Numbered from the stretch's first letter, positions 24,812 to 48,060 are shown. The stretch is DNA of 64,000 nt from Candidatus Sumerlaeia bacterium (GCA_039683515.1 JBDKRG010000059.1:38615-102614), one strand, 5' to 3'. Notes: generated from the sequence alone by a model not told the origin. Program-made: numbers and translations.

Positions 24812-25030
24812 AAACAAAAAAGCAAAACACGAAACTCACGAAAAGAAACCACGAAAGCACACGAAAACAAATCATGATCTCTGATTATTTTCGTGCTTTT
24901 TCGTGATCTTTATTGCGTGCGTTTCGTGTTTGAATTTCTCTGCTTCTCTGCTTATCTCCGCATCTCGGCGACAAAATCTTTTTCGTGTATTTTCGTGATC
25001 TTTATTTCGTGCGTTTCGTGTTTGAATTTT
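24812..25030 (-). repeat. dispersed CACGAAA-array repeat element, copy 1 (reverse orientation, with internal ~91-bp tandem duplication)
   Basis: Runs of cacgaaa/ttcgtg heptamers, plus the reverse complement of ttgtcgccgagatgcggagataagcagagaagcagagaa. The unit tttcgtgatctttat(t)tgcgtgcgtttcgtgtttgaattt occurs twice (24891-24935 and 24982-25026). The second unit supplies the last codons and stop of the thiE-like gene. Confidence 0.7.
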
Positions 25031-26039
25031 TCATCAGCTTTTTAATCGCCCCGGCCGGGTCGGGCGACTTGCAGATGTGCGCGATCATCGCGTAGCACTC
25101 GAACCCGTTCGCAACCAGCTCGCCCACGTTGTCGCCGGCGATCCCGCCGACGGCCACCGCCGGAATCCCCCGCGCGGCCTTGCGCATCCGCCCCGCTTTT
25201 TCGACCCCGAGCACCGGCGCGTGGTCGGCCTTGGATCCGGTCGCGAACACCGGGCCAATCCCGATGTAGTCGGGCTTTTCGCGCAGCGCGGCCGCAAGCT
25301 GGCTCCGGTTGTGCGTCGACTTGCCGACCAGCACGCGCCCGCCGACGATCTCGCGCGCGTCGGCGACCGGCAGGTCGCTCTGGCCGAGGTGAACGCCGTC
25401 GGCCCCGGCCAATTTCGCGATGTCGGGGCGGTCGTTGACGATGAACAACGTCTGCGAGCCGCCCGTGATCTCGCGGATGCGCCGCGCCAGTTCCAGGAGC
25501 GGCCCGCCGTCCATGTTCTTGGCCCGGAGCTGGACCGCGCCAACCTTGAGCCGCACCGCGATCCCGGCGAGCTTCTCGTAGCCGATCGCGGGGTCGGTCA
25601 GGATCAGATACAAGCCCTTGAGGCGCGCGGCATTTCCGGTCCGGACGAACAGCGGCACGACCAGCGCCTCGAGCTGATACGCCTCGTAACGCATCGCCTT
25701 GGCGCGCGCGACGGCTTCGGGATATCCAAGCTTCGCCATCTCTTCAAGGACGCGCAGCGATTCCTGCACGCGCCCGAACGACGCCCCCAGGATCGCGGCC
25801 TGATCGGTGCGGCGCAGCGGCTCCTTCACGCGGACGCGGCCGATGTCGCCGTCGCTGTCGCGCGCGTCGAGCACCTCGCGCGGGAACAGTTTCCGCAAAT
25901 CGTTCACGCCGTGGCGCAGCCCCTTGAGCCGCGTCGAAAGCGCCGTGTCGTTCAGCCCGAACCGGCAGAAATCCTCGATCACCCGCAGCCCCTCGCCGAG
26001 CCGGTCCAGATTGGCGTCAATGATCCGATATTCCATCAT
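25002..26039 (-). CDS. thiamine-phosphate synthase-like protein with ~140-aa N-terminal extension
   Basis: The C-terminal 200 aa match the ThiE fold motifs (LYLILTDP..., VQLRAK..., IGIGPVFATGSK, VAVGGI). The N-terminal domain is unassigned. Confidence 0.65.
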   Translation of the reverse strand: MMEYRIIDANLDRLGEGLRVIEDFCRFGLNDTALSTRLKGLRHGVNDLRKLFPREVLDARDSDGDIGRVRVKEPLRRTDQAAILGASFGRVQESLRVLEEMAKLGYPEAVARAKAMRYEAYQLEALVVPLFVRTGNAARLKGLYLILTDPAIGYEKLAGIAVRLKVGAVQLRAKNMDGGPLLELARRIREITGGSQTLFIVNDRPDIAKLAGADGVHLGQSDLPVADAREIVGGRVLVGKSTHNRSQLAAALREKPDYIGIGPVFATGSKADHAPVLGVEKAGRMRKAARGIPAVAVGGIAGDNVGELVANGFECYAMIAHICKSPDPAGAIKKLMKNSNTKRTK

Positions 26040-26147
26040 GCGTGCAAATCCCTCCGAACTGGCATTTTATCGAGTCACCTGTTTGACCGCCAGCCTTTCG
26101 TGCTCGTGCCGATGCAGTAGCCCGAGCGTGAGCGAGGGCTTTCGTGC

Positions 26148-26162
26148 TCGTAATCGTAATCG
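26148..26162. repeat. CGATTACGATTACGA motif (reverse orientation) in divergent thi promoter region
   Basis: tcgtaatcgtaatcg preceded by ctttcgtgctcg. Same 21-mer as 12742-12762. Confidence 0.7.
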
Positions 26163-26231
26163 AAACTCGAAGAAATCATCATCTCTCCCCCCGCTCCAAT
26201 TCATTGACGTTTCCAAATCCGGACTTTAATA

Positions 26232-26366
26232 TATGGGGACTGGGGAGCTCCACGTAGGGGCTGAGAGGGCGGTAGGCCGCCGACCCATAAAACCTGATCC
26301 GGGTAATGCCGGCGTAGGGACGCACACCGATCGTTCAGCGAGCCTCCCACGCCGGGAGGTTTTTCG
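26232..26366 (+). promoter_or_regulatory. TPP (THI-box) riboswitch with intrinsic terminator expression platform
   Basis: Aptamer: ggggactggggagc...ggggctgagagggc...gacccataaaacctgatccgggtaatgccggcgtaggga (THI-element consensus CUGAGA...ACCUGAUC.GG.UAAU.CC.GCGUAGGGA). It is followed by the hairpin agcctcccacgccgggaggt plus tttttcg. Located directly upstream of the thiS-thiF fusion gene. Confidence 0.85.
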
Positions 26367-26367
26367 T

Positions 26368-27192
26368 TTGGCCTCAGCCAACGCCACCATCCAGATTTAC
26401 ATCAACGAGCAGCCGCGGCGGATCTTGAGCGGCCTCTCGCTCATGGAACTGCGCGACGCGTTCAAGCCGGCGGCCGACATCATGATCCACAACGGCCACC
26501 CCATGCAGTCCGACGTCGAGCTCGCCGAGGGCGACCGCGTCGTGCTGATCAGGCGCGGCGAAATCCCCCCCGCCGACGAACTCGAGGCGCTCCTGGTCTC
26601 GCGCCACGGCCCCGGGATCCACGAAAAAATCAAGAACGCCACCATCGGCATCGCCGGCTGCGGCGGGCTCGGCAGCGCGGTGGCCGTCACGCTCGCGCGG
26701 CTCGGCGTCGGCGCGCTGCGGCTCGTCGATCACGACGTCGTCGAGCCGAGCAACCTCAATCGCCAGCAGTTTTTCATCGACCAGATCGGCCGGATGAAGA
26801 CCGACGCGCTGGCCGAAAATCTGAAGCGGATCAATCCGTACGTCAAAACCGAGGCGATCCTGGCGCGCCTGACGCGCGACAACATCGCCGCGACGTTCGC
26901 CGGCTGCGCCGTGGTGGCCGAGTGCTTCGACGACCCCGCCGCCAAGCGCGACATGACGATCGCGATGCGCCGCGACCTGCCGGCCGTCCCGCTCGTCACC
27001 GTTTCGGGGATCGCCGGAGCCGGACCGTCCGAGGCGATTCGCATCCGCAAGGTCATGGACAACGTCTGGCTCGTGGGCGACGGCGAGACCGCCGCCGAGC
27101 CCGGCCGCGGCCTTCTCGCCCCGCGCGTGGCGGTCGCCGCCGGCCACCAGGCCAGCGTGATTTTGCGGATCTTATTGGGCGAGGAATCCTGA
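26368..27192 (+). CDS. thiF: ThiS-like ubiquitin-fold domain fused to ThiF/MoeB-type adenylyltransferase
   Basis: N-terminus ATIQIYINEQ...GDRVVLIRRGEI is a beta-grasp ThiS-like domain. It is followed by the Rossmann motif GIAGCGGLGS and the E1-like core. Probable TTG start at 26368 after GGAGG (the track frame extends back to 26233 through the riboswitch). Start uncertain. Confidence 0.7.
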   Translation: MASANATIQIYINEQPRRILSGLSLMELRDAFKPAADIMIHNGHPMQSDVELAEGDRVVLIRRGEIPPADELEALLVSRHGPGIHEKIKNATIGIAGCGGLGSAVAVTLARLGVGALRLVDHDVVEPSNLNRQQFFIDQIGRMKTDALAENLKRINPYVKTEAILARLTRDNIAATFAGCAVVAECFDDPAAKRDMTIAMRRDLPAVPLVTVSGIAGAGPSEAIRIRKVMDNVWLVGDGETAAEPGRGLLAPRVAVAAGHQASVILRILLGEES

Positions 27193-27392
27193 TGGAAATT
27201 AAAGTCAACGGCGAGCCGCGCCGGATCGAGCCGGGGATGACGATCGTGCAACTGCTCGGCGAGCTCGGCCTCGAGCCGCTCCACCTCGCGATCGAACACA
27301 ACGGCGACATCGTCGATGAAACCTCCATCGCCGGCATCGACCTCAAAGCTGGCGACACGCTGGAGATCATCAGGTTCGTCGGTGGCGGGTGA
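27192..27392 (+). CDS. thiS: sulfur-carrier protein ThiS
   Basis: 66 aa ending ...RFVGGG (C-terminal Gly-Gly). TGATG overlap with the thiF stop. Confidence 0.8.
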   Translation: MEIKVNGEPRRIEPGMTIVQLLGELGLEPLHLAIEHNGDIVDETSIAGIDLKAGDTLEIIRFVGGG

Positions 27393-27397
27393 ACGAA

Positions 27398-28045
27398 ATG
27401 AAGAATATCGGTTTAATCTCATTGCTTGTCATCATCGCCGCAGGATGCAAATCCAACGGACCGTACTGGCGGAGCCGCGGCCATGACCTCACGGACATCG
27501 TTACGCTGACAGTCGGGGTAGGCGCCGGCGCAAAGGTCATGGTTGGCCCTTTTCATGTTGGTTTACTGGGCTGCGGTGATGTTTATGGAATACGAGATGG
27601 GGTCATCATACCCCACAACATGGAGGACTCCTCCGACATCGATGATTTCATCTTCCCGCTCGGCCCCATTGCCCCTGCAATCCTTCGCAACCCGCCTATT
27701 TTCGGATTCAGCGCGTTGCCCTGCAGAACATGCGATCAGGGTATGATGACGCATTGTTTTCCTTTGTTTTCTCTCCCCGAACCGAATTTCCACGAAGGCA
27801 AACCCGCATGGTGCGGAGGTGAGGGACCATTTTATAAACCCGTTCTGATCCATAACAATGAACATGCCCTGCAGTACTTGACCCAGATCGAAGTGGTTGG
27901 GGGACTTGTTGGCACAGTGCGCGTAGGTGTTAATCCCGGCGAACTCGTTGATTTCATTGTCGGGATCGCAGACCGGGATATTTATGGCGATGATAATGTG
28001 AAGAAGGATAGCGATAATGAGACAGCAGAAAAAACTGGTCATTGA
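27398..28045 (+). CDS. lipoprotein of unknown function embedded in thi operon
   Basis: [17 protein letters not shown] lipobox. Noticeably lower GC than its neighbours. The 3' end overlaps the thiG start by 29 nt. Confidence 0.5.
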
Positions 28046-28802
28046 CTCGATCGAGTTCACGTCGCGGCTGTTTATCGGCACGGGCAAGTTCGCCTCGGCG
28101 CAGGCGATGGCCGATGCCGTGCTGGCTTCCGGGAGCGAGCTCGTCACCGTCGCGCTGCGCCGCGTCGACCTCAAGAATCCGCACGACCCGATGCTCGAGG
28201 CGCTCGACTTCAGCAAGTACCGGCTGCTGCCGAACACCTCCGGCGCGCGCGACGCCGAGGAGGCCGTGCGGCTTGCGAAACTGGCGCGGGCGGCGACGAA
28301 AACGAACTGGGTCAAGCTCGAGGTGACGCCCGATCCGTATTATCTGCTCCCCGATCCGGTCGAGACGCTGCGCGCGGCCGAGGAACTCGTCAAGCTCGGC
28401 TTCGTCGTCCTGCCTTACATCAACGCCGACCCGGTCCTGGCCAAGCGCCTCGAGGACGCCGGCTGCGCGACCGTCATGCCGCTGGCCGCGCCGATCGGCT
28501 CCAACCGCGGCCTCAAGACGCGCGACCAGGTCGCCATCATCATCGAAAACGCGGGCGTGCCGGTCGTCGTCGACGCCGGCCTCGGCATGCCGAGCCACGC
28601 CGCGGAGGCGATCGAGCTCGGCGCCGACGCCGTGCTCGTCAACACCGCCATCGCCATCGCCGAGGACCCGGTCGCCATGGCCGAGGCGTTCAAGCTCGCC
28701 GTCATCGCCGCCGAGAAAGCGCGCGAGGCCGGCCCCGGCGGCGAAAGCCGCCTCGCAAGGGCGTCGAGCCCGCTGACGGGGTTTCTGAGGGAGAATGAAT
28801 AG
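28017..28802 (+). CDS. thiG: thiazole synthase
   Basis: Collinear with ThiG throughout ([12 protein letters not shown]..., LPNTSGA..., [14 protein letters not shown]..., [14 protein letters not shown]..., AVLVNTAIA). Confidence 0.9.
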
Positions 28803-28839
28803 TTCAACCACGGAAGGCCTGGCGCGGCGAGCCGCAACC

Positions 28840-29145
28840 AAACAACAAGACAGAAATGCGGGTCACGAAATACACGAAAGGAAACACGAAAAACCACGAA
28901 AACCTATTCTTGTCGCCGAGGGGCAGAGTCAGGCAGAGATGCAGAGAAATACTCGAAGACAGGAATGAACAGAAGGCAACGGAGGAAACGGAGGATTTCC
29001 TGGCGGATCATCTCTCGGTTGCCTTCGTTGCCTCCTGTTCAAAATCTTGCCAGAAAAACAAGATTCGGACGGATAGTAGTACGGAATACACGGAATCGAT
29101 TTTTTGTCGCAGAGATGCGGTATTGTGCAGAGGACGCAGAGAAGA
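28840..29145 (+). repeat. dispersed CACGAAA-array repeat element, copy 2 (with a second partial unit)
   Basis: cacgaaatacacgaaaggaaacacgaaaaaccacgaaaa, then ttgtcgccgaggggcagagtcaggcagagatgcagagaa...gaagacaggaatg...ggaggaaacgg...ctcggttgccttcgttgcctcc (internal inverted repeat), then a second ttgtcgcagagatgcgg...gcagagaagaatg. Located between thiG and thiH. Confidence 0.7.
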
Positions 29146-30267
29146 ATGAATTTTTACGAGCAGATTCAGAGCCTGAACTTGAATGAAATCCGGGAGAGGA
29201 TCGAGCGCGCTTCTTCGATGGACGTCGAGCGCGCGCTCGCCCGCGAGCACCTCGAAATCCACGATCTCGCCGCGCTCTTTTCGCCCGCGGCCGCCCCTTT
29301 CATCGAGGAGCTCGCCCAGCGCAGCGCCGCGCTCACCGAGCGCCGCTTCGGCCGCGTCATCCAGCTCTACGCACCGCTTTACGTCTCCAACGAGTGCGTC
29401 AACAAGTGCGTCTACTGCGGATTTTCGCACGACGTCGGGATCCCGCGCCTCACGCTCACGGTCGAGCAGGCGGTCGCCGAGGCCGACGCGATCGCGCGCG
29501 AAGGTTTCCGGCACATCCTGCTCGTCGCAGGCGAGGACCGCCGCCATGTCAGCGTCCCCTACCTCGCCGAGATCGTGCGCCGACTCAACGACAGGTTCGC
29601 CGCGATCGCGATCGAGATCCAGCCGCTCAATGAAGACGAATACCGCGAGCTAGTCGCGGCCGGCGTCGACGGCCTCGCGATCTACCAGGAGACCTACGAC
29701 GAGGCACTCTACAAGACGCTCCACCCAGCCGGCCCCAAGCGCAATTACAAGGGGCGGCTCGAGGCGATCGAGGCGGGCGGCCGCGCCGGCATGCGCGCCC
29801 TCGGCATCGGCGCGCTCCTGGGCCTCGGCGACTGGCGCTTCGAGGCGGTGATGGTCGCCATGCACGGCCGCCACCTGGCGCGCCGGTTCTGGCGCAGCCG
29901 CGTGGCGATCAGCTTCCCGCGCATCCGCGGCAACGCGCACATGTTCCGACCCGAGCGCCTGCCGACCGACGCCGACCTCGTCCAGATGATCTGCGCGATG
30001 CGGCTGGTGCTGCCCGACGCCGAGCTGGTCATGTCGACGCGCGAAAACGCGAAGCTGCGCGACCGGCTCATCGGCCTCGGCATCACGCGCACGAGCGCCG
30101 GCAGCAAGACCAACCCCGGCGGCTACCAGATGGACGAAGCGATGGACAGCGGCGAGCAGTTCGCCGTCAGCGACCCGCGCCCGGCCGCCGAAGTCGCCGC
30201 GGCCATCGCCGCGCGCGGATTCGAACCGGTCTGGAAAGACTTCGACCGCAGCCTGGCCAAGTGCTGA
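29146..30267 (+). CDS. thiH: 2-iminoacetate synthase (tyrosine lyase), radical SAM
   Basis: Radical-SAM cluster motif NECVNKCVYCGF. Collinear with ThiH through to the C-terminus (…QFAVSDPRPAAEVAAAIAARGFEPVWKDFD). Confidence 0.9.
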   Translation: MNFYEQIQSLNLNEIRERIERASSMDVERALAREHLEIHDLAALFSPAAAPFIEELAQRSAALTERRFGRVIQLYAPLYVSNECVNKCVYCGFSHDVGIPRLTLTVEQAVAEADAIAREGFRHILLVAGEDRRHVSVPYLAEIVRRLNDRFAAIAIEIQPLNEDEYRELVAAGVDGLAIYQETYDEALYKTLHPAGPKRNYKGRLEAIEAGGRAGMRALGIGALLGLGDWRFEAVMVAMHGRHLARRFWRSRVAISFPRIRGNAHMFRPERLPTDADLVQMICAMRLVLPDAELVMSTRENAKLRDRLIGLGITRTSAGSKTNPGGYQMDEAMDSGEQFAVSDPRPAAEVAAAIAARGFEPVWKDFDRSLAKC

Positions 30268-30291
30268 TCATCAAGACCGCGCCTTGGCGGT

Positions 30292-30912
30292 TTAAAAATG
30301 ATCCATGCCAATCCGCTCGAGGATGCGCGCGACGGCCGCCGCGGGATCGGGCCGGCCGAAGACGCTTCGGATCGCGGCGATGCCGTACGCCCCGGCCCGC
30401 ATCACTTCCCCGATCCGCTCGGGCCCGATCCCGCCGAGCGCGATCACGGGCGATTGCGTTTTCCCGGTCAACTCGCGCAGCGGCTCCAGCCCGAGCGGAC
30501 GGCCCTTGCCCGGCGTCTCATAAATCGGGCTGAGCGTCACGTAATCGGCGCCGTCCGCGAACGCGTCGAGCGCCTCCCGGACCGAATGCGCCGACCAGCC
30601 GATGACGGCGCCCTCGCCCAGGGCCGCGCGCGCCTCGGCGATCGCCGGGCCGTTCGCGCCGAGGTGGATCCCATCGGCGCCGAGCATCCGCGCCAGCCCG
30701 ATCCGGCGATTGACGATCAGCTGCGCGCCGCAAGCCGTCGTCAGCGGCCGCAGCCAGCGGCATGATTCGAACAAATCGGCGTCGCTCACGGCCGATTTCT
30801 CGCGCAGCATGATCGCCGCCCGCCCGCCCCCGAGCGCCTGCATTACGATCGACTGGCAATCGTGTCGCGAAAAGAAACCCGGCGGCGTGATGGCGATCAG
30901 GCGAGCGATCAT
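30292..30912 (-). CDS. thiE: thiamine-phosphate synthase
   Basis: 206 aa with canonical ThiE motifs (AITPPG..., IMLREK, DGIHLG, YVTLSPIYETPGK, VIALGGI). Confidence 0.85.
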   Translation of the reverse strand: MIARLIAITPPGFFSRHDCQSIVMQALGGGRAAIMLREKSAVSDADLFESCRWLRPLTTACGAQLIVNRRIGLARMLGADGIHLGANGPAIAEARAALGEGAVIGWSAHSVREALDAFADGADYVTLSPIYETPGKGRPLGLEPLRELTGKTQSPVIALGGIGPERIGEVMRAGAYGIAAIRSVFGRPDPAAAVARILERIGMDHF

Positions 30913-34963: not shown

Positions 34964-37900
34964 ATGAGCCAACTCACCAGCTCAATGCGAAAGATTGCCG
35001 GCCGCGCCCTGTCCCTCCACCCGGCGCTGGCGCGCCTCGCCGCGCGCATCGCCATCGACGACCGCCTCATCCCGTACCTGTTCGGCGACCCGCGCCTGCC
35101 GCTGCGGCTGAGCCTCGACGCTTCGCTGATGCGCGAGTTCCTCGCGCTGGCCGGCGACGACCGGCTGCTGGGCGCGATCCTCGACGAGCCGCTCCTGGGC
35201 GAGCGCATTTACCTGAGCGAGCCCGCGCTGCGCCAGCTCCGGTCCAACCCGCGCGTCCAGCATTTCCTCCTGCTCGACGACCAGGTCCTGCGATACGTCT
35301 GCAAGTCCAAGGAAGCCGCCGCGAAGCTCGCGGTCCATGCCGGCCTGCGCGAGCTGCTTCTGGCCGAGCAGCCGTTCCGGGAATGGGCGGCCCGAAACGA
35401 ACACGTTCTCCAGCTGATCCTCGGCCGCGAGGACATCGTCGAGAAATTCATCGCCGCGGACGGCCTCCTCGCGCGCATCGTCCGCCACCCGGCGCTGTTC
35501 GAGGGCGTCATCGCGGATAAGGATGTCCTCGCGCGCATCGTCCGTGACGAGCGCGTGGTCCGGCGCGGCCTCGCCGAGCCGTCGTGGCCCGCGATGGCGA
35601 CGGCCGAGTTGCTCAAGCGGTTCTCCGCCGACCCATCGATCCTCGATTCGATCATCAACGATGAATCCGTTGCCGACCGCTCGTACGCGAGCGAGCCGAT
35701 CCGCCGCCGCATTCACGCCGATATCCCCCTGTTTCTCGAAATCGCGAACTCCGGTTCAGGTCTTGCCGCGATCTCGGCCGACCGGCCACTCCTCCTCCGC
35801 ATCTTGAATGAGGCCGGCATCGAGGCGATCTTGGCGCATCCGGTGTTGCTCGATCGCGTCCTCGCCGACCCGCGCGCCTTCGACCGGATCCTGGGTCACG
35901 CCGGCCTCATCGCCCAACTGCTCCGGAACGAAACGGTCATCGATCAGCTTTTGGCGGACGATGAGCTGCTCCACAAGTTGCTTTCGAACGACGCGGCGTG
36001 GACGGCTCTGTTTGGCGATGATCTCTTCATCGATCGCATGATCGGCAACGGGCGCGTCTTCGAAAAAATCATCGCCGACGATCGGCTGCTTGCACGGCTT
36101 GTCGCGCACGACCGCGCCTTCGACAAGATCCTCGCCGACGACCGACTCCTGGCCCAACTCGTCGCGCATGATCGCGCATTCGCTCGCATCATCGCGAACG
36201 ACCGGCTCCTCGCCCGGCTCGTGGCCCATGACCGGGCGTTCGAGAAGATCGTCGCGAACGAACAACTCCTGTCGCGCCTGATCGCCGACGAACGCGCATT
36301 CGATATCATGATCGCCAACGACCGGCTCCTCGCCCGGCTCGTGGCCCACAATCGGGCGTTCGAGAAGATCGTCGCGAACGAACAGCTCCTGGCGCGCCTG
36401 ATCGCCGACGACCGCGCGTTCGGCCTCATCATCGCAAACGACCGACTGCTCGCCAAAGTCATCGATCACGACCGCGCATTCGGCGTCATCGTTGCCCATG
36501 ACGCGTTGCTGGTCAAAATCGTCGGCAACGAACGCGCATTCGAAAAGATTGCCGCGAACGAACGGCTCCTGGCGCGCCTGATCGCCGACGACCGCGCATT
36601 CGATATCATGATCGCAAACGACCGGCTTCTCGCCCGCCTGATCGCCCATGACCGCGCGTTCGGTTTCATCGTTGCTCATGACGCGTTGCTGGTTCAAATC
36701 GTCGGCAACGAACGCGCGTTCGAAAAGATTGCCGCGAACGAACAGCTCCTGGCGCGCCTGATCGCCGACGACCGCGCATTCGAAAAAATCACCGCCAACG
36801 AGCGGCTCCTGGCGCGGCTCGTCTCCGATCGCCGCGCCTTCGGCAAGATCCTCGACGACGAACAACTGCTCGCAAAGGTCGTCGCAAACGACCGGGCATT
36901 CGGCAAAATTCTCGCCGACGATCAGCTCCTCGCAAAACTCCTCTCGAACGAGCGCGCCTTCGGCCTTGTCATCGCCGACGGCCAACTCGTCTCGAGGCTT
37001 GTCTCGCATGAGGGCGCTTTCGATAAAATCATCGACGACGAACGACTCCTGGCCCGCATCATCCTCAGCGACCGCGCGTTCAATGCCATCGTCGCCGACG
37101 GCAATCTGCTTTCGCGCATCGTTTCCGACGAGCGCGCATTCGGCTTCATCCTCGCCGACGATCAGCTCATTGCGCGCGTCGTCTTGCATGATCGAGCCTT
37201 CGGCTTCATCGTCTCGAACGAACCGCTGCTCGACCGGCTCCTCGCGCACGCCCGCGCCTTCGAAGGAATCCTGTCGGATGACCGGCTCCTGGCCCGCGTC
37301 GTCACGAACGAGCGCGCGTTCGATCAAATCGTCGCCGATGAAAATCTCTTCAAGCGCCTTGTCGCGAACGAGCGGGCGCTCAAGGTGATTTTCGCCAACG
37401 AGTCGCTCTCCAAACGCATGTTCACCCACCCGAAGACCTCGGACTGGGTCAGGCAGACCCCGTCCATCTTCAGCCGGGTGGTCCTCAACGAGCAGGGCGC
37501 GCGCAAGATCATGACCAACCCGATCCTGGCGGCCAACCGGCCGATCGGCGGGCTCATGGAGGCGCACGCCGAATTCGACCGGATCTGGCTCGAAATCCAG
37601 CCGCACGTCGATTCGTCGCGGCCCGGGTTCGACGACCGCCTCCAGGAGGCGCTGAAAAAGCTCACGAAAATCGAGGACGTCCAGAGGACGCTGCTCGACA
37701 TCATTTGCGACGGCAACCGCGCGTATCTGAACGGCGCGACGATCGCGTTTACCGACCGGTTCTCGTTCTGGACCGAGCTCAACGAGATCATGCTCGACGA
37801 GGATTATTACTTCGAGACCGACGCCGCCAAGCCGCGCATCCTCGACTGCGGCACGAACTTCGGCCTCGCGATCTATTACTTCAAGCGTCTCTACCCGTCG

Positions 37901-38440
37901 GCCCGCGTGACAGGGTTCGAGCCCGTCCCGTCGCTCTGCCGGATGGCCCGCGCCAACGTGCGCGACAATGGCTTTAAAAACGTCAGGATCCACAAATACG
38001 CCGTCGCCGCGCAGCCCGGCCGCAAAAGATTCTACGAATCGAAATCATTCCCGATGGCGGGCTCGCTCACCGCGCGCCGGGTCGAGTTCGGCGACGATGT
38101 CGCCGAGATCAAGGTCGAATGCAGGCCGCTGAGCGAGTTCCTGGAGGAGCCGGTCCATTTCCTCAAGCTCGACATCGAGGGCTCGGAGGACTCGGTCCTG
38201 GCCGAGGCCGCCGCGCGGCTGCCGATGGTCCACAACATGTTCATCGAATACCACCACGGCGCGGGCGCTCCGGACGGCCGCCTCACCACCATCCTGCAAC
38301 TGCTCGACCGCTCCGGTTTCGACTGGCAGATCGGCAAGTCGTTCCACTTCGGCCGCCAGTCGCGCCGCCGCGCGCTCAGTTTCGCCGGCCGGCCCTTCAG
38401 CCTCAACATCTGGGCAAAGAACCGAGCACTCAACGACTGA
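34964..38440 (+). CDS. giant 20-residue tandem-repeat protein fused to C-terminal FkbM-family methyltransferase
   Basis: 1158 aa. At least ~25 clear units of consensus DRAFxKIxANxxLLARLIAD (60-nt DNA period) plus degenerate units. The C-terminal ~250 aa carry FkbM-type methyltransferase motifs (ILDCGTNFG…, FLKLDIEGSE). Confidence 0.75.
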   Translation: MSQLTSSMRKIAGRALSLHPALARLAARIAIDDRLIPYLFGDPRLPLRLSLDASLMREFLALAGDDRLLGAILDEPLLGERIYLSEPALRQLRSNPRVQHFLLLDDQVLRYVCKSKEAAAKLAVHAGLRELLLAEQPFREWAARNEHVLQLILGREDIVEKFIAADGLLARIVRHPALFEGVIADKDVLARIVRDERVVRRGLAEPSWPAMATAELLKRFSADPSILDSIINDESVADRSYASEPIRRRIHADIPLFLEIANSGSGLAAISADRPLLLRILNEAGIEAILAHPVLLDRVLADPRAFDRILGHAGLIAQLLRNETVIDQLLADDELLHKLLSNDAAWTALFGDDLFIDRMIGNGRVFEKIIADDRLLARLVAHDRAFDKILADDRLLAQLVAHDRAFARIIANDRLLARLVAHDRAFEKIVANEQLLSRLIADERAFDIMIANDRLLARLVAHNRAFEKIVANEQLLARLIADDRAFGLIIANDRLLAKVIDHDRAFGVIVAHDALLVKIVGNERAFEKIAANERLLARLIADDRAFDIMIANDRLLARLIAHDRAFGFIVAHDALLVQIVGNERAFEKIAANEQLLARLIADDRAFEKITANERLLARLVSDRRAFGKILDDEQLLAKVVANDRAFGKILADDQLLAKLLSNERAFGLVIADGQLVSRLVSHEGAFDKIIDDERLLARIILSDRAFNAIVADGNLLSRIVSDERAFGFILADDQLIARVVLHDRAFGFIVSNEPLLDRLLAHARAFEGILSDDRLLARVVTNERAFDQIVADENLFKRLVANERALKVIFANESLSKRMFTHPKTSDWVRQTPSIFSRVVLNEQGARKIMTNPILAANRPIGGLMEAHAEFDRIWLEIQPHVDSSRPGFDDRLQEALKKLTKIEDVQRTLLDIICDGNRAYLNGATIAFTDRFSFWTELNEIMLDEDYYFETDAAKPRILDCGTNFGLAIYYFKRLYPSARVTGFEPVPSLCRMARANVRDNGFKNVRIHKYAVAAQPGRKRFYESKSFPMAGSLTARRVEFGDDVAEIKVECRPLSEFLEEPVHFLKLDIEGSEDSVLAEAAARLPMVHNMFIEYHHGAGAPDGRLTTILQLLDRSGFDWQIGKSFHFGRQSRRRALSFAGRPFSLNIWAKNRALND
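35790..37440 (+). repeat. coding 60-bp tandem repeat array (120-bp near-identical super-units in places)
   Basis: For example, 36290-36410 nearly duplicates 36170-36290. The repeats also keep the antisense frame open (track ORF 35756..37993 minus), which I treat as an artefact. Confidence 0.85.
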
Positions 38441-41432: not shown

Positions 41433-41434
41433 GC

Positions 41435-41466
41435 GATGAGAGATGAAATAATTCTCATCTCTCATC
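41435..41466. terminator. bidirectional terminator-like hairpin (GATGAGAGATGA stem)
   Basis: gatgagagatgaaataattctcatctctcatc (12-bp stem) lies between convergent genes. More ctcatc units follow. Confidence 0.55.
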
Positions 41467-41489
41467 TCTCATAGCTCATCTCTATCTCT

Positions 41490-42869: not shown

Positions 42870-42980
42870 CGGGTGAGAAATCCTTGTCAACTTCGGCCTT
42901 CATGCACGCGGCCATCGATATCCTAACACGAACCCCAGACGCATGAAAGCGCGCAGTCGCCCGAGCGCAGGCGGGGAAGC

Positions 42981-43007
42981 GTGGGGCCGGCGCCCCCGCC
43001 GGCCATT
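42981..43007. repeat. REP-like 27-mer with GC hairpin (copy 2)
   Basis: Identical to 17697-17723. Sits in the divergent rlmD/queE promoter region next to a tcgtaatcg motif (43026-43034). Confidence 0.75.
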
Positions 43008-43092
43008 TCGTATTCATGCTCATCATCGTAATCGCGTGTCGACTCTTCTTTTCCCCCTGTTATCTTCAATTCCACCGTGCTAAAGTGTGGCC

Positions 43093-43788
43093 ATGGAATC
43101 GCTTCGGATGACCACCGCCGAGTCCAACGCCCCCAGGCGCGCCGCGACGCTGCCGATCAACGAGCTGTATGCCTCGATCCAGGGCGAGTCGACCTACGCC
43201 GGGCGGCCCTGCTCGTTCGTGCGGCTGACCGGCTGCCCGCTGCGCTGCGCCTGGTGCGACAGCGAGTTCTCATTCGCCGGCGGCAGGGGCATGACGATCG
43301 ACGCGATCGTGGACGAGGTCGCCCGGCTCGGCCTGCCGCTCGTCGAGGTCACCGGCGGCGAGCCTCTGGCCCACCCCGGCTGCGCCGAGCTCCTGACGCG
43401 GCTGTGCGACGCGAATTTCACGGTTCTGCTCGAGACCAGCGGCGCGTTCGACGTCTCGCCGGTCGACCCGCGCGTCATCAAGATCCTCGACATCAAGTGC
43501 CCCGGCAGCGGCATGGCCGACCGCAACACCTGGGAAAACCTCGGCCGCCTCTCGCCCGCCGACGAGATCAAGTTCGTCCTGGCCGACCGCGCCGACTACG
43601 AGTGGGCCCGCCACATCATCGAGCGCAACCCGGTGCTGCGCGACGGCCGCCCCGTCCTTTTCTCGCCCGTGCACGGCCAGCTCGAGCCGGGCGAGCTCGG
43701 CGACTGGATCGTCGCCGACCGCCTGCCGGTCCGGCTTCAAATCCAGCTTCACAAATACGTCTGGCCCAACCGCAACCGGCTCGTGTAG
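43093..43788 (+). CDS. queE: 7-carboxy-7-deazaguanine synthase
   Basis: Radical-SAM QueE pattern: ELYASIQGEST…GRPCSFVRLTGCPLRCAWCDSEF…VEVTGGEPL. Track start GTG 43087; ATG 43093 chosen. Confidence 0.8.
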   Translation: MESLRMTTAESNAPRRAATLPINELYASIQGESTYAGRPCSFVRLTGCPLRCAWCDSEFSFAGGRGMTIDAIVDEVARLGLPLVEVTGGEPLAHPGCAELLTRLCDANFTVLLETSGAFDVSPVDPRVIKILDIKCPGSGMADRNTWENLGRLSPADEIKFVLADRADYEWARHIIERNPVLRDGRPVLFSPVHGQLEPGELGDWIVADRLPVRLQIQLHKYVWPNRNRLV

Positions 43789-43802
43789 ACCGCCGCCCTG
43801 CT

Positions 43803-44735
43803 TCAGCCAGACACCACCTGATTGACCAGCACCCCGATCCCCTCGACGCCGCATGCCACAATATCCCCGGCCTTCAAGAACCGTTGCGGCGTCCTGAACG
43901 CGCCCACGCCCGCGGGCGTCCCGGTCGCGATCAGGTCGCCCGGCCGGAGCGTCATCCCGCGCGACAAATAGGAAATGATGCAGGGCAGCGAGAAGAACAT
44001 GTCGTCGGTGTCGCTCTCCTGCATGCGCTCGCCATTGACGTCGGTCCAGAGCTTGAGCGGCCATTTGCCCCCGAGTTCGTCGGCCGTCACGATCCACGGC
44101 CCGCACGGCGCGAACGTGTCGAAGCTCTTGGCGCGGGTGAACTGGCGGTCGCTGAACTGGCAGTCGCGCGCCGAGACGTCGTTCATGACAGTGTAGCCGG
44201 CGACGTATTTCAGCGCGTCGGCCTCGCTGACGTTGCGCGTTATTTTGCCGATCACGGCGACGACCTCGCACTCGTAATCGACCTGCGTCGTCACGCCGGG
44301 CGGCGGCAGCACGATCGGGTCGCGCGGCCCGGCGAGCGCGCTGGCATACTTGGCAAAGATCACCGGCGCGCGCGGCGCCTCGATCGGCTTCTTGAAAAAC
44401 GCCTTCTGTTCCGCGACGTGGCTCTTGTAATTGAACCCGAGCGCGATGATTTTCTCGGGATCCGGAACCGGCGGCCCAAGCTCGACGTCGTCGAATCGCA
44501 TCCACCACCGCGGCCGGCGCTCGCCGGCAGCAATGGATCTCTCCACCATCGGCAGCTGCGCGATCACGTGCTGCGCCGATGCCATCCCATCGTCGCCCAT
44601 TACCAGCAATTCGCGGACCGAACTCGGCAGCCGTACGCCATACGCCTTTCCCGACCGCTCCGCATCAACCACCCAGTCGCCCCAAACCAAACCGGCGCGA
44701 ACCGACTCTCCAACACGATATGAAATAATTTTCAT
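43803..44735 (-). CDS. fumarylacetoacetate hydrolase (FAH) family protein
   Basis: FAH-fold motifs (…IIALGFNYKSH…, DYECEVVAVIG…, GTPAGVG…). Confidence 0.8.
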   Translation of the reverse strand: MKIISYRVGESVRAGLVWGDWVVDAERSGKAYGVRLPSSVRELLVMGDDGMASAQHVIAQLPMVERSIAAGERRPRWWMRFDDVELGPPVPDPEKIIALGFNYKSHVAEQKAFFKKPIEAPRAPVIFAKYASALAGPRDPIVLPPPGVTTQVDYECEVVAVIGKITRNVSEADALKYVAGYTVMNDVSARDCQFSDRQFTRAKSFDTFAPCGPWIVTADELGGKWPLKLWTDVNGERMQESDTDDMFFSLPCIISYLSRGMTLRPGDLIATGTPAGVGAFRTPQRFLKAGDIVACGVEGIGVLVNQVVSG

Positions 44736-44908
44736 TTATCTTCCCCTGCGATTTCGTTACCGCAAATGCATTTTCACCGCCCGCGGTTCGCGCTTCAAGC
44801 TGGATTATGATGATTCGGAATTTTATGCTCAATGTTATGATGTTTCGTAACACGCCCACGCCGGTACAACCGATCGGACGTGCATTTTAGCAAGGACGCA
44901 TCGACCTT

Positions 44909-46222
44909 ATGCCCACTCAATCCAAACGCAGCCGCAAGCATAGCAACACACCCACCGTCGGCGTCATCGGACTTGGCTACGTCGGCCTGCCGCTCGTCGT
45001 CGAAATGGCCCGCAGCGGCGGCTTCAACGTCATCGGCTTCGACGTCAGCGTCGACAAAGTCGAATCGATCAACATGGGGAAATCCTACATCGAGGACATC
45101 CCGACCTCCGAGCTCGGGCCGCTCGTGCGCGAGGGCCGGATCCGCGCGACCTACGACTTCAGCCACCTCGAACAGGTCGAGGCGGTCTCGATCTGCGTGC
45201 CCACCCCGCTGCGCAAGACCAAGGACCCCGACATCTCCTACATCCTGGCCGCCGTCGACGAAATCCAGCAGCACCTCCAGCGCGGCCAGACGATCATCCT
45301 CGAATCGACGACCTACCCCGGGACGACCGACGAGGCCGTCCTGCCGGTCCTCGAGTCGACCGGCCTCAACGTCGGCGAGGATTTCTACCTGGCGTTCTCG
45401 CCCGAGCGCGTCGACCCCGGCAACCCGCAGTGGAAAACCCGCAACACGCCGAAGATCGTCGGCGGCATCACCGAGAAATGCACGAAGCAGGCGATCAAAT
45501 ATTACGGCCGCGTCTTCGAGAACATCATCCCGGTCAGCTCGACGCGCTGCGCCGAGATGGTCAAGCTCCTCGAGAACACGTTCCGCAGCGTCAACATCGG
45601 CATGGTCAACGAGATGGCGCTGATGTGCGACAAGCTCGGCCTGGACGTCTGGGAAGTCATCGAGGCCGCCGCGACCAAGCCGTTCGGCTTCATGCCGTTC
45701 TTCCCCGGCCCAGGCCTCGGCGGCCACTGCATCCCGATCGACCCGCATTACCTGTCGTGGAAGCTCAAGACGCTGAACTACCAGGCCCGCTTCATCGAGA
45801 TGGCGGCCGAGATCAACGGCTCGATGCCGCGCTACGTCGTCCAGAAGGTCGCCGACGCGCTGAACGACGCGGCCAAGCCGGTCAACGGCTCCAAGATCCT
45901 CGTCCTCGGCGTGGCCTACAAGCGCGACGTCAGCGACGTCCGCGAGAGCCCGGCCCTGGACATCATCGAGATGCTCGCCGACCGCGGCGCCGACGTCACC
46001 TACCACGACCCGCACGTCCCCGTGCTCGACGAGAACTCGATCGAGATGAAGTCGGTCGAGCTGACCGCCGGCCGACTGCGCCGCGCCGACTGCGTCGTGA
46101 TCGTCACCGACCACAAGGCGGTCAACCTGCCGATGGTCGCGCGCGAGGCGCGCCTCATCGTCGACACCCGCAACGCCACCAAGCGCCTCAAGAATCCGAA
46201 GGCAAGAATCGTGAAGCTGTAA
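44909..46222 (+). CDS. nucleotide-sugar dehydrogenase (UDP-GlcNAc/ManNAc dehydrogenase-like, Ugd/WecC/WbpA family)
   Basis: GVIGLGYVGLP Rossmann motif. Catalytic GGHCIP. Family-typical C-terminal domain. Confidence 0.85.
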   Translation: MPTQSKRSRKHSNTPTVGVIGLGYVGLPLVVEMARSGGFNVIGFDVSVDKVESINMGKSYIEDIPTSELGPLVREGRIRATYDFSHLEQVEAVSICVPTPLRKTKDPDISYILAAVDEIQQHLQRGQTIILESTTYPGTTDEAVLPVLESTGLNVGEDFYLAFSPERVDPGNPQWKTRNTPKIVGGITEKCTKQAIKYYGRVFENIIPVSSTRCAEMVKLLENTFRSVNIGMVNEMALMCDKLGLDVWEVIEAAATKPFGFMPFFPGPGLGGHCIPIDPHYLSWKLKTLNYQARFIEMAAEINGSMPRYVVQKVADALNDAAKPVNGSKILVLGVAYKRDVSDVRESPALDIIEMLADRGADVTYHDPHVPVLDENSIEMKSVELTAGRLRRADCVVIVTDHKAVNLPMVAREARLIVDTRNATKRLKNPKARIVKL

Positions 46223-46242
46223 CCGCACAAACGACGCAAAAA

Positions 46243-46283
46243 CGCCGGAGCCGCGAATCAGCGCGCTCCGGCGGTTTTTTTGT
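46243..46283 (+). terminator. rho-independent terminator
   Basis: cgccggagccgcgaatcagcgcgctccggcg hairpin followed by gttttttt. Confidence 0.7.
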
Positions 46284-46314
46284 TCGCTCTTTCGGAAAGC
46301 TATTGGAATTTACT

Positions 46315-46343
46315 CCGCAATCCGAAATCCGCAATCCGCAATC
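46315..46343. repeat. CCGCAATCC heptamer-like array (relative of 20133-20170)
   Basis: ccgcaatccgaaatccgcaatccgcaatc, bracketed by cggaaag…ctttccg. Immediately 3' of the argC stop. Confidence 0.6.
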
Positions 46344-46346
46344 AAT

Positions 46347-47378
46347 TTACTTTCCGATCAGCCCCAGCGTCTCGGGCAGGCCGAACATGATGTTCATGTT
46401 CTGGACGGCCTGGCCGCTGGCGCCCTTGGTCAGGTTGTCGATCGTCGAGACCACGATCAGCGTCTCGCTGTGCTTGTCGGCAACGACGCCGATATCGACG
46501 AAGTTCGTCATGTAGGTCGCGGCCGTCGCCGGGACCGCGCCCGGCGCCATCAGCCGGATGAACGGCTCGCTGCCGTACTTGTCCTCGAACCACGCGTGCG
46601 CCTCGGCCGTCTCGATCGGCCGGCGCATCGGGATCGTGCACGTGGCCAGGATGCCGCGGTTCATCGGCACGAGGTGCGGCGTGAACGTCAGCGTGACCGG
46701 CCAGCCGGCCACTTTCGAAAGCTTCTCCTCGATCTCGGGCCGGTGCCGGTGCTTGCCGACGCCGTAGGCCGAGACCGCCTCATTGCACTCGGGGAAATGC
46801 GTGTTGTCGGACGGCTTGCGGCCGGCCCCGGTCACGCCCGACATCGCGTTGATGACGATGCGGTCGAGCTCCAGGTCGTCGGGCTGGTGCATGAGCGGCG
46901 CCAGCGCCAGGATGCTGGCCGTCGTGTAGCAGCCCGGGTTGGCGATCGCCTGCGGGCCGGCCAGTTCCGGCCGGAACAGCTCGGGCAGGCCGTACGGGAT
47001 CTTCGCGTTGAGCTCGGGGGCCTGGTGCGTCACGCCGTAAGTGGCCTCGAACAGCCCGATCGAATCGAACCGGAAGTCGGCGGACAGATCGATCACGCGC
47101 AGCCCCGACGCGAGCAACTCGCCCATGTAGGACTGTGCGGCGGTGTGCGGCAGCGCCAGGAACACCACGTCGCAGCGCTCGGCCAGGGCCTTGGTGTCCA
47201 TCGGCTCGATCTTGCAGCCGACCTGCCCGCGCAGGAACGGGAAGTAGTGCTCGACCGGCTCGGGGGCGTCGACGCGCGCCATCAGGCACTCGACCCGCGC
47301 CTCCGGATGAAACGCGAGCAGCCGCATCAGCTCGCCCGCCGTGTAACCCTTCGCCCCAAGAATGCCAACCCGGATCAT
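46347..47378 (-). CDS. argC: N-acetyl-gamma-glutamyl-phosphate reductase
   Basis: MIRVGILGAKGYTAGEL…, catalytic Cys region …NPGCYTTASILAL…. Collinear with ArgC. ATG 47378 preferred to the track GTG 47396. Confidence 0.9.
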   Translation of the reverse strand: MIRVGILGAKGYTAGELMRLLAFHPEARVECLMARVDAPEPVEHYFPFLRGQVGCKIEPMDTKALAERCDVVFLALPHTAAQSYMGELLASGLRVIDLSADFRFDSIGLFEATYGVTHQAPELNAKIPYGLPELFRPELAGPQAIANPGCYTTASILALAPLMHQPDDLELDRIVINAMSGVTGAGRKPSDNTHFPECNEAVSAYGVGKHRHRPEIEEKLSKVAGWPVTLTFTPHLVPMNRGILATCTIPMRRPIETAEAHAWFEDKYGSEPFIRLMAPGAVPATAATYMTNFVDIGVVADKHSETLIVVSTIDNLTKGASGQAVQNMNIMFGLPETLGLIGK

Positions 47379-47508
47379 GTTTACATCGACCTCCACCGCA
47401 GAATGTTCCCCATGATATCGCCCCCGCCCCCGATTTGAAATAGCATTTTGAGTGGTTTTTAGTCACGATGGATCGGTTCGTTTTCTGAGACCGATGCCGA
47501 TTTTCGAT

Positions 47509-47520
47509 CACGATTACGAG
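47509..47520. repeat. CACGATTACGAG motif in divergent argC/ABM promoter region
   Basis: cacgattacgagcgcga. Fourth occurrence of the CGATTACGA core in a divergent promoter. Confidence 0.55.
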
Positions 47521-47544
47521 CGCGATCAATAGGAGGGCAATACC

Positions 47545-47862
47545 ATGTTCGTCGTCAGCGTCAGCGTCCACGTCAAGCCCGAGAACGTCCAGGATTTCAT
47601 CGACTCCATCCTCGAGAACGCCCGCGGCACCCGCCAGGAACCGGGCAACCTGCGCTTCGACGTCCTGCAGGACAAGGAAGACGCGAGCCACTTCATGCTC
47701 TACGAGGTCTACCGCAGCGAGGACGACCTGCGCGCGCACCAGACGACTCCCCACTACCTCGGCTGGCGCGAAAAGGCCAACCCGTGGATGGCCCAGGCAC
47801 GCAAGGGCACCCGCTACACCCCGCTCTTCCCCGAGGGCGAATCGAAATGGGAATCGAAGTAA
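47545..47862 (+). CDS. antibiotic-biosynthesis-monooxygenase (ABM) family protein
   Basis: 105 aa with the ferredoxin-like ABM pattern (FVVSVSVHVKPENV…, FMLYEVYRSEDDLRAHQTTPHY). AGGAGGG ribosome-binding site. Confidence 0.7.
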   Translation: MFVVSVSVHVKPENVQDFIDSILENARGTRQEPGNLRFDVLQDKEDASHFMLYEVYRSEDDLRAHQTTPHYLGWREKANPWMAQARKGTRYTPLFPEGESKWESK

Positions 47863-47864
47863 GA

Positions 47865-48060
47865 AAATGCAGGCCACTAAAAGCACGCAAGACACGAAAA
47901 GAAACCATTTGTCGCAGAGACGCAGAGTTAGGCAGAGATGCGGAGAATTCTTGAAGACAGGAATGGGCAAAAGATAACCGGAGGAAACGCAGATGTTTTT
48001 ACAGATTAAGTCTCCGTTGCCTTAGTTTCCTCATGGTATCTGCTTTGAAGGTTTTTTGAT
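47865..48060 (+). repeat. dispersed CACGAAA-array repeat element, copy 3
   Basis: …cacgaaaagaaaccatttgtcgcagagacgcagagttaggcagagatgcggagaattcttgaagacaggaatgggcaaaagataaccggaggaaacgcag…tctccgttgccttagtttcctc. Collinear with copy 2. Confidence 0.7.

Follow-up and report, generated by a model that had tools for sequence, protein, structure and literature searches.

A modular non-coding repeat built from short-word arrays in Candidatus Sumerlaeia, a candidate non-autonomous mobile element

A stretch of 64,000 nucleotides from Candidatus Sumerlaeia bacterium (GCA_039683515.1, JBDKRG010000059.1:38615-102614), hereafter called the window, harbors arrays of the heptamer CACGAAA in several spacers between its genes. 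The original prediction, made from the sequence alone, had described three of these sites as copies of a dispersed non-coding element and had proposed a REP/BIME-like element, a MITE or a family of small RNAs titrating an RNA-binding protein. This raises the question of whether the three sites really belong together and, if they do, what kind of element they represent. The pattern GTCGCNGAG-N12-GCAGAGANGCNGAG, which stands for a 35-nt sequence here termed the GCAGAG box, matched the window exactly three times, while 0.01 matches were expected by chance. Further matches were not found in the window, even when three mismatches were allowed. The following cores were located by the pattern search:

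24938-24972, minus strand: GCAGAG box core of copy 1
28912-28946, plus strand: GCAGAG box core of copy 2
47911-47945, plus strand: GCAGAG box core of copy 3

Because of the excess of box matches, the repeat is real and far beyond chance. CACGAAA occurs 26 times in the window (9 expected), 16 of these occurrences lying at the three box sites. As predicted, all three sites are intergenic and 3' of genes, beginning 0-18 nt past a stop codon. The G+C content of the window is 64%, and its spacers are AT-richer. The three sites are true copies or fragments of one non-coding, modular repeat family, and the claim of a three-copy dispersed repeat was thus borne out. The sites are not equivalent: copy 2 is complete, copies 1 and 3 are partial.

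To place the repeat in a wider frame, the box pattern was scanned over 185,579 species genomes. The scan yielded 37 loci, 27 of them in the metagenome-assembled genome (MAG) 'bacterium bin.378' (JAJFUE01 = GCA_021372575.1), five in SKNI01 and five in other MAGs. The bin.378 orthologues of ThiE and the iron-containing alcohol dehydrogenase (Fe-ADH) are 74% and 72% identical to those of the window and the gene order at both loci is the same; on these sequence grounds, bin.378 and the window organism are related. Many copies were thus found in this relative, where the original prediction had reckoned with the possibility that none existed elsewhere. About 27 bin.378 loci carry the element in the same ~255-nt architecture as copy 2, in the order GC box (CTTGGCGC.GCGGAGCCGCAACC), CACGAAA array, GCAGAG box, hairpin 1 composed of GGAGGAAAC words, hairpin 2 (ATCTTGTCAGGAAAACAAGAT) and tail CTGACGGATAGTAGT. 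Complete units measure 245-262 bp. Pairwise identities among the bin.378 copies range from 58 to 98% with a median of 85%, taken over the 19 copies spanning most of the model. The number of words is variable (two to four CACGAAA, one to three GGAGGAAAC per arm); GC box and tail are constant.

Copy 2 is the complete representative in the window. An nhmmer profile made from the bin.378 copies matched at 28820-29081 (model positions 2-256, E=8e-66), and every module of the bin.378 unit is present and alignable:

28819-29080, plus strand: complete 262-bp composite element (nhmmer profile, module alignment with the bin.378 copies)
28819-28840, plus strand: GC box, followed by a linker
28863-28902, plus strand: CACGAAA array
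28907-28950, plus strand: GCAGAG box
28967-29040, plus strand: hairpin 1 with GGAGGAAAC words
29044-29064, plus strand: hairpin 2
29065-29080, plus strand: tail TCGGACGGATAGTAGT
28810-28818, plus strand: left flanking 9-mer ACGGAAGGC, candidate target-site duplication (a single ACGGAAGAC at the bin.378 empty site)
29081-29089, plus strand: right flanking 9-mer ACGGAATAC, candidate target-site duplication (bin.378 empty-site alignment)
29090-29145, plus strand: ancestral thiG-thiH spacer outside the insert (aligned with the 70-bp bin.378 spacer, ~90% identical)
Operon order: thiamine pyrophosphate (TPP) riboswitch (26231-26337), thiSF, thiS, an open reading frame (ORF) without known family, thiG (28017-28802), copy 2, thiH (29146-30267)

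Copy 2 is 74-78% identical to the bin.378 copies. Its first hairpin comprises 74 nt with a calculated energy of -42.4 kcal/mol, and the whole element folds with a z-score of -3.7. The extent originally assigned to copy 2 was too short, since the 5' GC-rich box from 28819, hairpin 2 and the GGATAGTAGT tail up to 29080 belong to it as well; its location between thiG and thiH, downstream of the TPP riboswitch, had been recognized correctly. In the same organism, a contig assembled from short reads breaks off 40 nt past the thiG stop codon inside the element, as is expected when a multi-copy repeat is assembled.

The corresponding thiG-thiH spacer of bin.378 has a length of 70 bp. It aligns with the window sequence on both sides of the insert (left of 28818, right of 29081), and the insert itself is absent. 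The sequence is CAACCACGGAAGACACGGAATT at the empty site and CAACCACGGAAGGC-[262 bp]-ACGGAATACACGGAATC at the filled site; therefore, one ACGGAAGAC matches two diverged 9-mers (ACGGAAGGC and ACGGAATAC) around the insert. In a more distant relative thiG and thiH are only 2 bp apart. A tblastx comparison of the window with the bin.378 loci did not disclose any more empty sites. The relatives L039 and L042, chosen by ArgC, were rejected as a source of synteny because their loci are not syntenic.

The ends of the element were compared in ten complete copies representing nine independent sites, as L006 and L018 have the same flanks. All of them start with (T/C)TGGCGC and finish with GATAGTAGT (TTGGCGC.GCGG... 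/ ...GACGGATAGTAGT). The two ends are not complementary, and terminal inverted repeats were not found in any of the ten copies (ends CTGGCGCGG... and ...GGATAGTAGT). With copy ends taken from the profile coordinates, the two 9-nt flanks of a copy matched each other at 6.3 of 9 positions, whereas their agreement with the flanks of other copies reached 5.0 of 9 (exact permutation p=0.0007, nine independent copies). Nearly always, the flanks of complete copies are array words. The flanks of L007 and L035 are unrelated to CACGAAA and still match each other (ACAGATGAC/ACAGATTAA and GATGAA/GATGAA). The flanks look like a target-site duplication of approximately 9 bp, a reading qualified by the nature of the targets, which are tandem word arrays whose neighboring words are alike anyway. 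Looking for such a duplication had been part of the original prediction; one 9-mer at the empty site and two at the filled site point to it, though tandem word arrays are able to mimic it.

With moderate confidence, we favor the view that the three sites belong to a lineage-specific family of non-coding mosaic repeats, that the unit of ~250-262 bp is a non-autonomous mobile element which lands in heptamer-word arrays, and that copies 1 and 3 represent partial acquisitions. The building blocks would be CACGAAA arrays, the GCAGAG box, GGAGGAAAC-word hairpins and the GC-rich box, i.e., arrays of short words and hairpins made from them. The mobile unit, running from the GC box through CACGAAA array, GCAGAG box, hairpin 1 and hairpin 2 to the GGATAGTAGT tail, would insert into pre-existing heptamer-word arrays at the 3' ends of genes and would be bordered by copy-specific direct repeats of ~9 bp. 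In the case of copy 2 the insertion probably postdates the split of the window lineage from that of bin.378. Modules may also move or recombine piecemeal, and mobilization would depend on a putative trans-acting enzyme.

Several loci exhibit such module shuffling. The box occurs alone in L020 and L028, and in L017 it is flanked by inverted arrays. L012 contains two units in inverted orientation having hairpins in common, while L009 combines the same box with another word set. In L006, GC boxes are followed by other modules. L004, like L009, L012 and L017, shows recombination of modules between copies. Diverged versions of the modules were also detected in more distant Sumerlaeia-like MAGs.

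Copies 1 and 3 would be products of such partial events. Copy 3 resides between the genes of an ABM monooxygenase and an Fe-ADH:

47545-47862: ABM monooxygenase gene
47866-47907, plus strand: part a of copy 3, a degenerate CACGAAA-type array starting 3 nt past the ABM stop codon
47908-48036, plus strand: part b of copy 3 with GCAGAG box (core 47911-47945), linker and decayed GGAGGAAAC hairpin (~47978-48035) (nhmmer)
48106-49335: Fe-ADH gene

The profile matched copy 3 at 47869-48036, which covers part a too (model positions 30-212, E=8.5e-23). Copy 3 contains a single exact CACGAAA. Copies 2 and 3 are 67% identical over 166 nt, their common parts being the array, the box, the linker and the GGAGGAAAC-word hairpin. 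The hairpin of copy 3 is decayed, having lost one arm word, and with a z-score of -0.66 it is no better than shuffled sequence. In bin.378, the syntenic spacer (L056 3423-3493) comprises 71 bp with the CACGAAA array only and does not have the additions seen in copy 3. Hence, the array of copy 3 is old, and the box, the hairpin and the GGATTT words were added later. Another relative (L058) possesses four CGGACTGAT words in this spacer; the modules of part b are missing.

Copy 1 is located between convergent genes:

24422-24811, plus strand: DUF1634 gene
24818-24937, minus strand: hairpin of copy 1, composed of array B (24885-24937), a loop and the inverted array C (24818-24871)
24933-24977, minus strand: GCAGAG box (core 24938-24972; nhmmer model positions 28-123, E=3e-16)
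24978-25030, minus strand: array A with four CACGAAA words (array alignment); 25002-25028 are the last 8 codons of ThiE and its stop codon
25002-26039, minus strand: ThiD2/ThiE fusion gene

A CACGAAA array of ~52 nt is present three times in copy 1. A and B, which enclose the box, are repeated in direct orientation at a distance of 91 nt; C is inverted relative to B. Arrays B and C pair as a hairpin of -68.8 kcal/mol (z-score -5.3). The 91-bp internal tandem duplication that had been postulated for this copy did not hold up; the arrangement reflects the reuse of modules, not a duplicated 91-bp unit. The only parts that copy 1 has in common with the other two copies are the heptamer array and the box of ~40 nt; its own hairpin is made of inverted CACGAAA arrays. 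Consequently, the conserved core of ~120 bp with the GGAGGAAAC hairpin that had been attributed to all three copies was retained for copies 2 and 3 and dropped for copy 1. Similarly, the proposed folding of this core applies to copy 2, fails for the decayed copy 3 and is replaced by a different hairpin in copy 1.

The ThiE protein of the window ends with ...IKKLMK|NSNTKRTK*, the last 8 codons and the stop codon lying in array A. It had been predicted that the repeat encodes the end of this gene, which is the case, albeit with 8 codons instead of 9. In bin.378, ThiE ends with ...IRKFMRKQK*, and the homologous AATTCAGGTCACGAAA is found 3' of its stop codon. The thiE-DUF1634 spacer of bin.378 contains the same inverted CACGAAA-array hairpin without array A and box, and ThiE stops before the array. 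Judged by this comparison with the bin.378 state, array A and the box are gains of the window locus, and the old stop codon has been lost there. At both partial sites, the box with or without array or hairpin would have been acquired beside ancestral CACGAAA arrays, probably by recombination or slippage through array homology.

Some observations weigh against a mobile unit. The duplication was judged from one orthologous spacer devoid of a complete copy, and with targets that are themselves tandem arrays of words, flanks may resemble each other even if nothing was duplicated. An all-against-all ORF search in the 8-kb loci around 27 bin.378 copies did not reveal a transposase-like or other multi-copy ORF; the sole multi-copy matches were spurious ORFs through the element itself. 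Terminal inverted repeats are lacking too, so that nothing in the element or its loci points to a way of moving. The window contains only one complete copy and thus no sign of recent activity in this genome, and simple insertion of the full unit cannot explain copies 1 and 3. The identity of copy 2 to the bin.378 copies (74-78%), set against ~73% for orthologous proteins, could reflect host-level selection on the sequence. Moreover, the preference for certain spacers amounts to trends only (Fisher p=0.13 for depletion between divergent genes, p=0.07 for enrichment between convergent genes). For this analysis long ORFs with a G+C content at third codon positions (GC3) of 0.6-0.9 were called as genes. 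Of the element-bearing spacers with both flanking genes called, 7 were convergent, 11-14 co-directional and 0-1 divergent, the background being 30, 97 and 35, respectively.

Some of these points would agree with an origin without transposition, in which the heptamer arrays stem from slippage, and neighboring modules are carried from spacer to spacer when arrays undergo gene conversion or recombine illegitimately. Copies 1 and 3 fit such a process, as in both of them partial modules adjoin ancestral CACGAAA arrays; so do the words of orthologous spacers, which differ by genome, the many unrelated heptamer arrays of the window and the flanks of complete copies, nearly all of which are array words. 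What this process does not predict is that complete copies are sharply and constantly bounded (TTGGCGC... / ...GATAGTAGT) at at least nine unrelated sites, and that dispersed copies reach up to 98% identity. Homology-driven conversion also predicts something other than the flank words of L007 and L035 (ACAGAT, GATGAA), which are unlike CACGAAA yet match each other. We regard this explanation of the whole family as rather improbable.

Element copies were found 0-70 nt from stop codons, adjoining the 3' ends of genes. A function for the host, similar to that of REP/BIME sequences, would mean that selection maintains the word-array hairpins at gene ends as cis elements, namely as protectors of transcript 3' ends, as terminators without a U-tract or as attenuators within operons, and that the composite is an often reused cassette. 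The proximity to stop codons is consistent with this idea. In addition, the thiE-DUF1634 spacer contains a hairpin in the window, in bin.378 and in L053, the words being CACGAAA, CACGAAA and GACGCAGAG, respectively. At this locus the structure seems to be kept while the sequence turns over; yet L054 harbors CTCGTG and TAATCG arrays and an inverted GCAGAG box without a clear hairpin. Word hairpins also occur in other convergent spacers of the window, e.g., at 41433-41489.

A further hint of selection comes from the ancestral spacer at 29090-29145. Besides a CACGGAAT word, it contains another GCAGAG box (29103-29142), which abuts the thiH start codon ATG at 29146. This stand-alone box (L051 4366-4410 in the relative) is ~90% identical between genomes whose proteins are ~73% identical, a difference that suggests constraint on this box. 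However, canonical terminators consisting of a hairpin and a U-tract are used as well (46223-46346), and none of the three copies matched the terminator consensus. The hairpin of copy 3 is decayed, the numbers of arm words drift out of balance without compensatory covariation, and relatives manage with element-free spacers of 2 bp, 70 bp and 71 bp. Thus, a selected host function is unlikely to be the primary explanation, though it retains some weight. As a mobile element, the unit is presumably mainly selfish and tolerated where promoters are spared. By its insertion a strong imperfect hairpin (~-42 kcal/mol) would be placed in transcripts. Between thiG and thiH it could stabilize the upstream mRNA or attenuate thiH, and at thiE the rearrangement would have replaced the native stop codon and created a new tail of 8 residues.

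We also asked whether the element encodes an RNA. Searches in Rfam at gathering scores, and additionally with E<=10 on copy 2, did not identify a family but gave only chance matches to miRNA-like hairpins. Scans for sigma-70 promoter and intrinsic-terminator consensus sequences disclosed nothing at any of the three copies. By eye, the GC box was also compared with a sigma-54 (-24/-12) promoter, a candidate which was discarded as the spacing does not fit. Energies of hairpin 1 were alike on both strands, and G-U pairs were not enriched on either. An RNAalifold analysis of 14 copies, i.e., the covariation check that had been proposed, revealed compensatory changes in none of the 41 predicted pairs, and in several copies the number of words is unequal between the two arms. 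In co-directional spacers, six elements were orientated sense and seven antisense; for CACGAAA arrays of at least three words the numbers were four and nine, with another nine arrays between convergent genes. Own signals, strand-consistent placement, covariation and membership in a known family, the marks of a structured small RNA, were all missing.

Thus, a new RNA gene or a role as small RNA or in protein titration is not supported. In its general form, the RNA idea holds that the element is a small RNA or a module of an untranslated region, whose heptamer array sequesters an RNA-binding protein, comparable to the proposal for the TAACTGA repeats of Beggiatoaceae. The arrays are purine-rich and T-poor, which would give unstructured RNA; all three copies in the window are sense to the upstream gene; and binding sites of S1, Csp or CsrA have been proposed for intergenic heptamer repeats elsewhere (PMC4679880). 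Considering the antisense orientation of 7 of 13 elements and 9 of 13 arrays, the missing promoter, terminator, Rfam and covariation signals, the strand-independent hairpin energies, the lost fold of copy 3 and the different words in orthologous spacers, we judge this possibility to be very unlikely.

The indifference to orientation would agree with a role at the DNA level, where phased heptamers spaced by 9-13 bp form arrays for a DNA-binding protein (nucleoid-associated or of the iteron type), the direction of transcription being irrelevant. The spacing of the words is near one helical turn, and arrays are widespread in spacers. On the other hand, so many different words occur, often at the same orthologous site, that many proteins or none would be needed, and no candidate protein was identified. 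For this reading we see only a slight chance.

A coding function was examined as well. No frame is open in all copies, and the bin.378 copies contain an in-frame TGA on the element strand. A 97-codon ORF (28856-29149, plus strand) crosses copy 2, its TGA overlapping the thiH start codon (ATGA). This ORF is probably an accident of the T-poor sequence, since the bin.378 copies have an in-frame stop codon; translational coupling into thiH could result from it.

Compared with known repeats, the element fits the REP/BIME-like or MITE-like option of the original prediction in its general behavior: dispersed copies in a relative, syntenic spacers free of the element, copy-specific flanking repeats, shuffling of modules and location at gene 3' ends. 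Among the closest described analogues is BOX of Streptococcus pneumoniae (boxA-boxB(n)-boxC), likewise a non-coding modular composite with fixed ends and one tandemly variable internal module. In both families the dispersed intergenic copies number around a hundred or fewer, folding is strong and the occurrence is limited to one lineage. Both are over-represented next to gene 3' ends and between convergent genes, and sometimes alter the ends of coding sequences. For BOX, the modular make-up, the variable internal tandem module and the verdict of a parasitic nature have been published (PMC3049150). The enrichment of BOX, RUP and SPRITE repeats between convergent genes was read as a sign of parasitic elements (PMC3049150). 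Unlike the Sumerlaeia element, which lacks terminal inverted repeats and whose modules are arrays of 7-9-nt words, BOX possesses complementary boxA/boxC ends similar to the terminal repeats of an insertion sequence (IS). From the taxa and the base composition, sequence homology to boxA, boxB or boxC was judged unlikely.

REP/BIME sequences of Enterobacteria and Pseudomonas (REPINs, mobilized by RAYT) resemble the element in that both combine short motifs and hairpins as mosaics, located in extragenic spacers near the ends of genes and also inside operons, with modules in several combinations and orientations. BIMEs are reportedly also targets of other mobile elements (PMC1525189, PMC3333891). 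The Sumerlaeia element does not have the defining GC-rich palindrome of 20-40 nt tagged with GTAG or CGTC. Its sole GC-rich module is the GC box of ~22 nt, which has a stem of 4-5 bp at most and no such tag, and the tail GATAGTAGT does not adjoin a GC-rich stem. With MITEs such as Correia/NEMIS, RUP and Nezha, the element shares a size of less than 300 bp, an AT content above that of the genome, the lack of coding capacity, multiple copies, insertion polymorphism between relatives and short direct repeats at the flanks. The terminal inverted repeats which gave MITEs their name are absent, and a cognate IS was not identified in the 8-kb loci around the 27 copies. Because of the missing inverted repeats, the element is not a MITE in the strict sense and, for want of a tagged GC-rich palindrome, it is not a strict REP; we therefore assigned it to neither family.

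The array module alone, not the whole composite, is similar to heptamer tandem repeats. The TAACTGA repeats of Beggiatoaceae, Cyanobacteria and Bacteroidetes also form intergenic arrays of two to six copies, with many arrays per genome (PMC4679880). In contrast to them and to STRR, the Sumerlaeia lineage uses many words (CACGAAA, CACGGAG, GATGAGA, ATTGCGG, TCCGATT, ACGATT and others), and its arrays, which often pair to give hairpins, provide both the landing sites and the components of a larger composite. The CACGAAA arrays do not follow the BOGUAY pattern, i.e., a position on the sense strand just upstream of start codons. Cyanobacterial STRR are intergenic heptamer tandem repeats, reportedly described by Mazel and colleagues in 1990. 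In Rickettsia palindromic elements (RPE), repeat sequence becomes coding sequence of host proteins. The last 8 codons of ThiE, in which a repeat has become C-terminal coding sequence, are similar to RPE and to BOX/RUP insertions; unlike RPE, the ThiE case is the replacement of a stop codon at the end of a gene, not an in-frame internal insertion.

One could go further and suppose that the 262-bp unit is a new kind of non-autonomous mobile element, which has no terminal inverted repeats, uses heptamer-word arrays as landing pads and duplicates ~9 bp. This stronger claim appears quite doubtful to us. As the unit carries the words it targets, matching of donor and target by sequence complementarity might work, possibly by target-primed copying or by a recombinase that is guided by RNA or DNA, as in the IS110/bridge-RNA type. 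If so, the fast-turning-over heptamer arrays in Sumerlaeia spacers would be a by-product or a substrate of that machinery. Unusual in any case is that the element is built from short-word arrays, appears to insert into such arrays and has no terminal inverted repeats, and if its mode of movement were identified, a different way in which repeats are targeted might come to light. Repeats of the small mosaic kind influence the expression of operons, cause breaks in assemblies and are markers of genome dynamics. To our knowledge, they have been described almost only from cultured Proteobacteria, Firmicutes and Cyanobacteria. The host of the present family belongs to the uncultured candidate phylum Sumerlaeota (BRC1). 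The family would account for contig breaks in these MAGs, for the altered ThiE C-terminus and for a structured insert of 262 bp in a riboswitch-controlled thiamine operon.

Outside bin.378, the matches were of a different kind. The five loci of SKNI01, a MAG labelled Myxococcales (L003, L010, L015, L024, L031), contain a GTCGCAGAG..GCAGAGAC box amid different words, GAAGGGCAAG. L034 and L037 were excluded as unrelated GCAGAG tandem arrays, and in L011, L014 and L030 the matches appear to be due to chance, the sequences being unrelated. A scan of Joint Genome Institute (JGI) metagenomes with the box pattern gave eight loci, seven of which were chance matches in unrelated, mostly GC-rich sequence, the eighth (L050) being an unrelated GCAGAG tandem array. 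Two scans of viral contigs did not yield a match. The long tandem arrays of L034, L037 and L050 have the form (GTCGCAGAG)n(ACGCAGAG)n and reside on Saprospiraceae and gammaproteobacterial contigs. Together with the Myxococcales-labelled MAG, they indicate that GCAGAG-type word arrays are not confined to Sumerlaeia. The GC box CTTAGCGCGGTCGAGCCGCAACC was also seen ahead of other repeated modules (AAAGCGAGGCCGCCAAAATACATCACGC...) in L006 (minus strand, 360-480 and 7850-7970), and in a third MAG (GCA_032942435.1) near the start of L053, at a contig end adjoining thiS. It may be a common end of several element types.

In the window, many other spacers contain tandem arrays of differing 6-10-nt words, often as inverted pairs giving hairpins, and orthologous spacers of relatives carry other words:

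3787-3849: GATGAG array
9024-9154: CACGGAG array
9190-9313: TCCGATT and TTTCGGA arrays
12715-12802: ACGATT and ACGAGC arrays
20061-20170: ATTGCGG array
26100-26162: word array
41433-41489: GATGAGA array
46314-46343: TCCGCAA array
48055-48102: GGATTT array

The three-copy repeat is the most conspicuous case of this lineage-wide property. A canonical intrinsic terminator (GCCGGAGC...GCTCCGGC, then T7) was found between convergent genes at 46223-46346, and ordinary terminators are therefore used alongside word hairpins.

Further observations concern genes of the window. In the thi operon, the gap between thiS and thiG is occupied by a 218-codon ORF (27389-28045, plus strand), whose GC3 is 0.55, compared with ~0.9 for neighboring genes, and for which Pfam gave no match. 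Its bin.378 counterpart at the same position (171 aa) has no Pfam match either, and the ORF is absent from the thi operon of the more distant relative L054. At 58884-60897, a low-GC islet (0.39-0.47) has a direct repeat of 120 nt at its two ends (58884-59003 and 60745-60864, 93% identical), which overlaps tRNA-Leu(aag) at 60811-60897. The islet contains the gene of a DUF6941 protein (59279-59965) as well as an ORF without family (59969-60670), and it looks like a small element integrated at a tRNA gene. A protein of 1158 aa (34964-38440, plus strand) contains ~22 tandem repeats of 60 nt (20 aa) at 35922-37481 and a C-terminal methyltransferase domain of the FkbM type. Finally, the gene of a TPR-domain protein (6472-7863, minus strand) comprises a CAG/CTG-rich tract with a 9-nt period (6600-7270), which results in a glutamine-rich region of low complexity.

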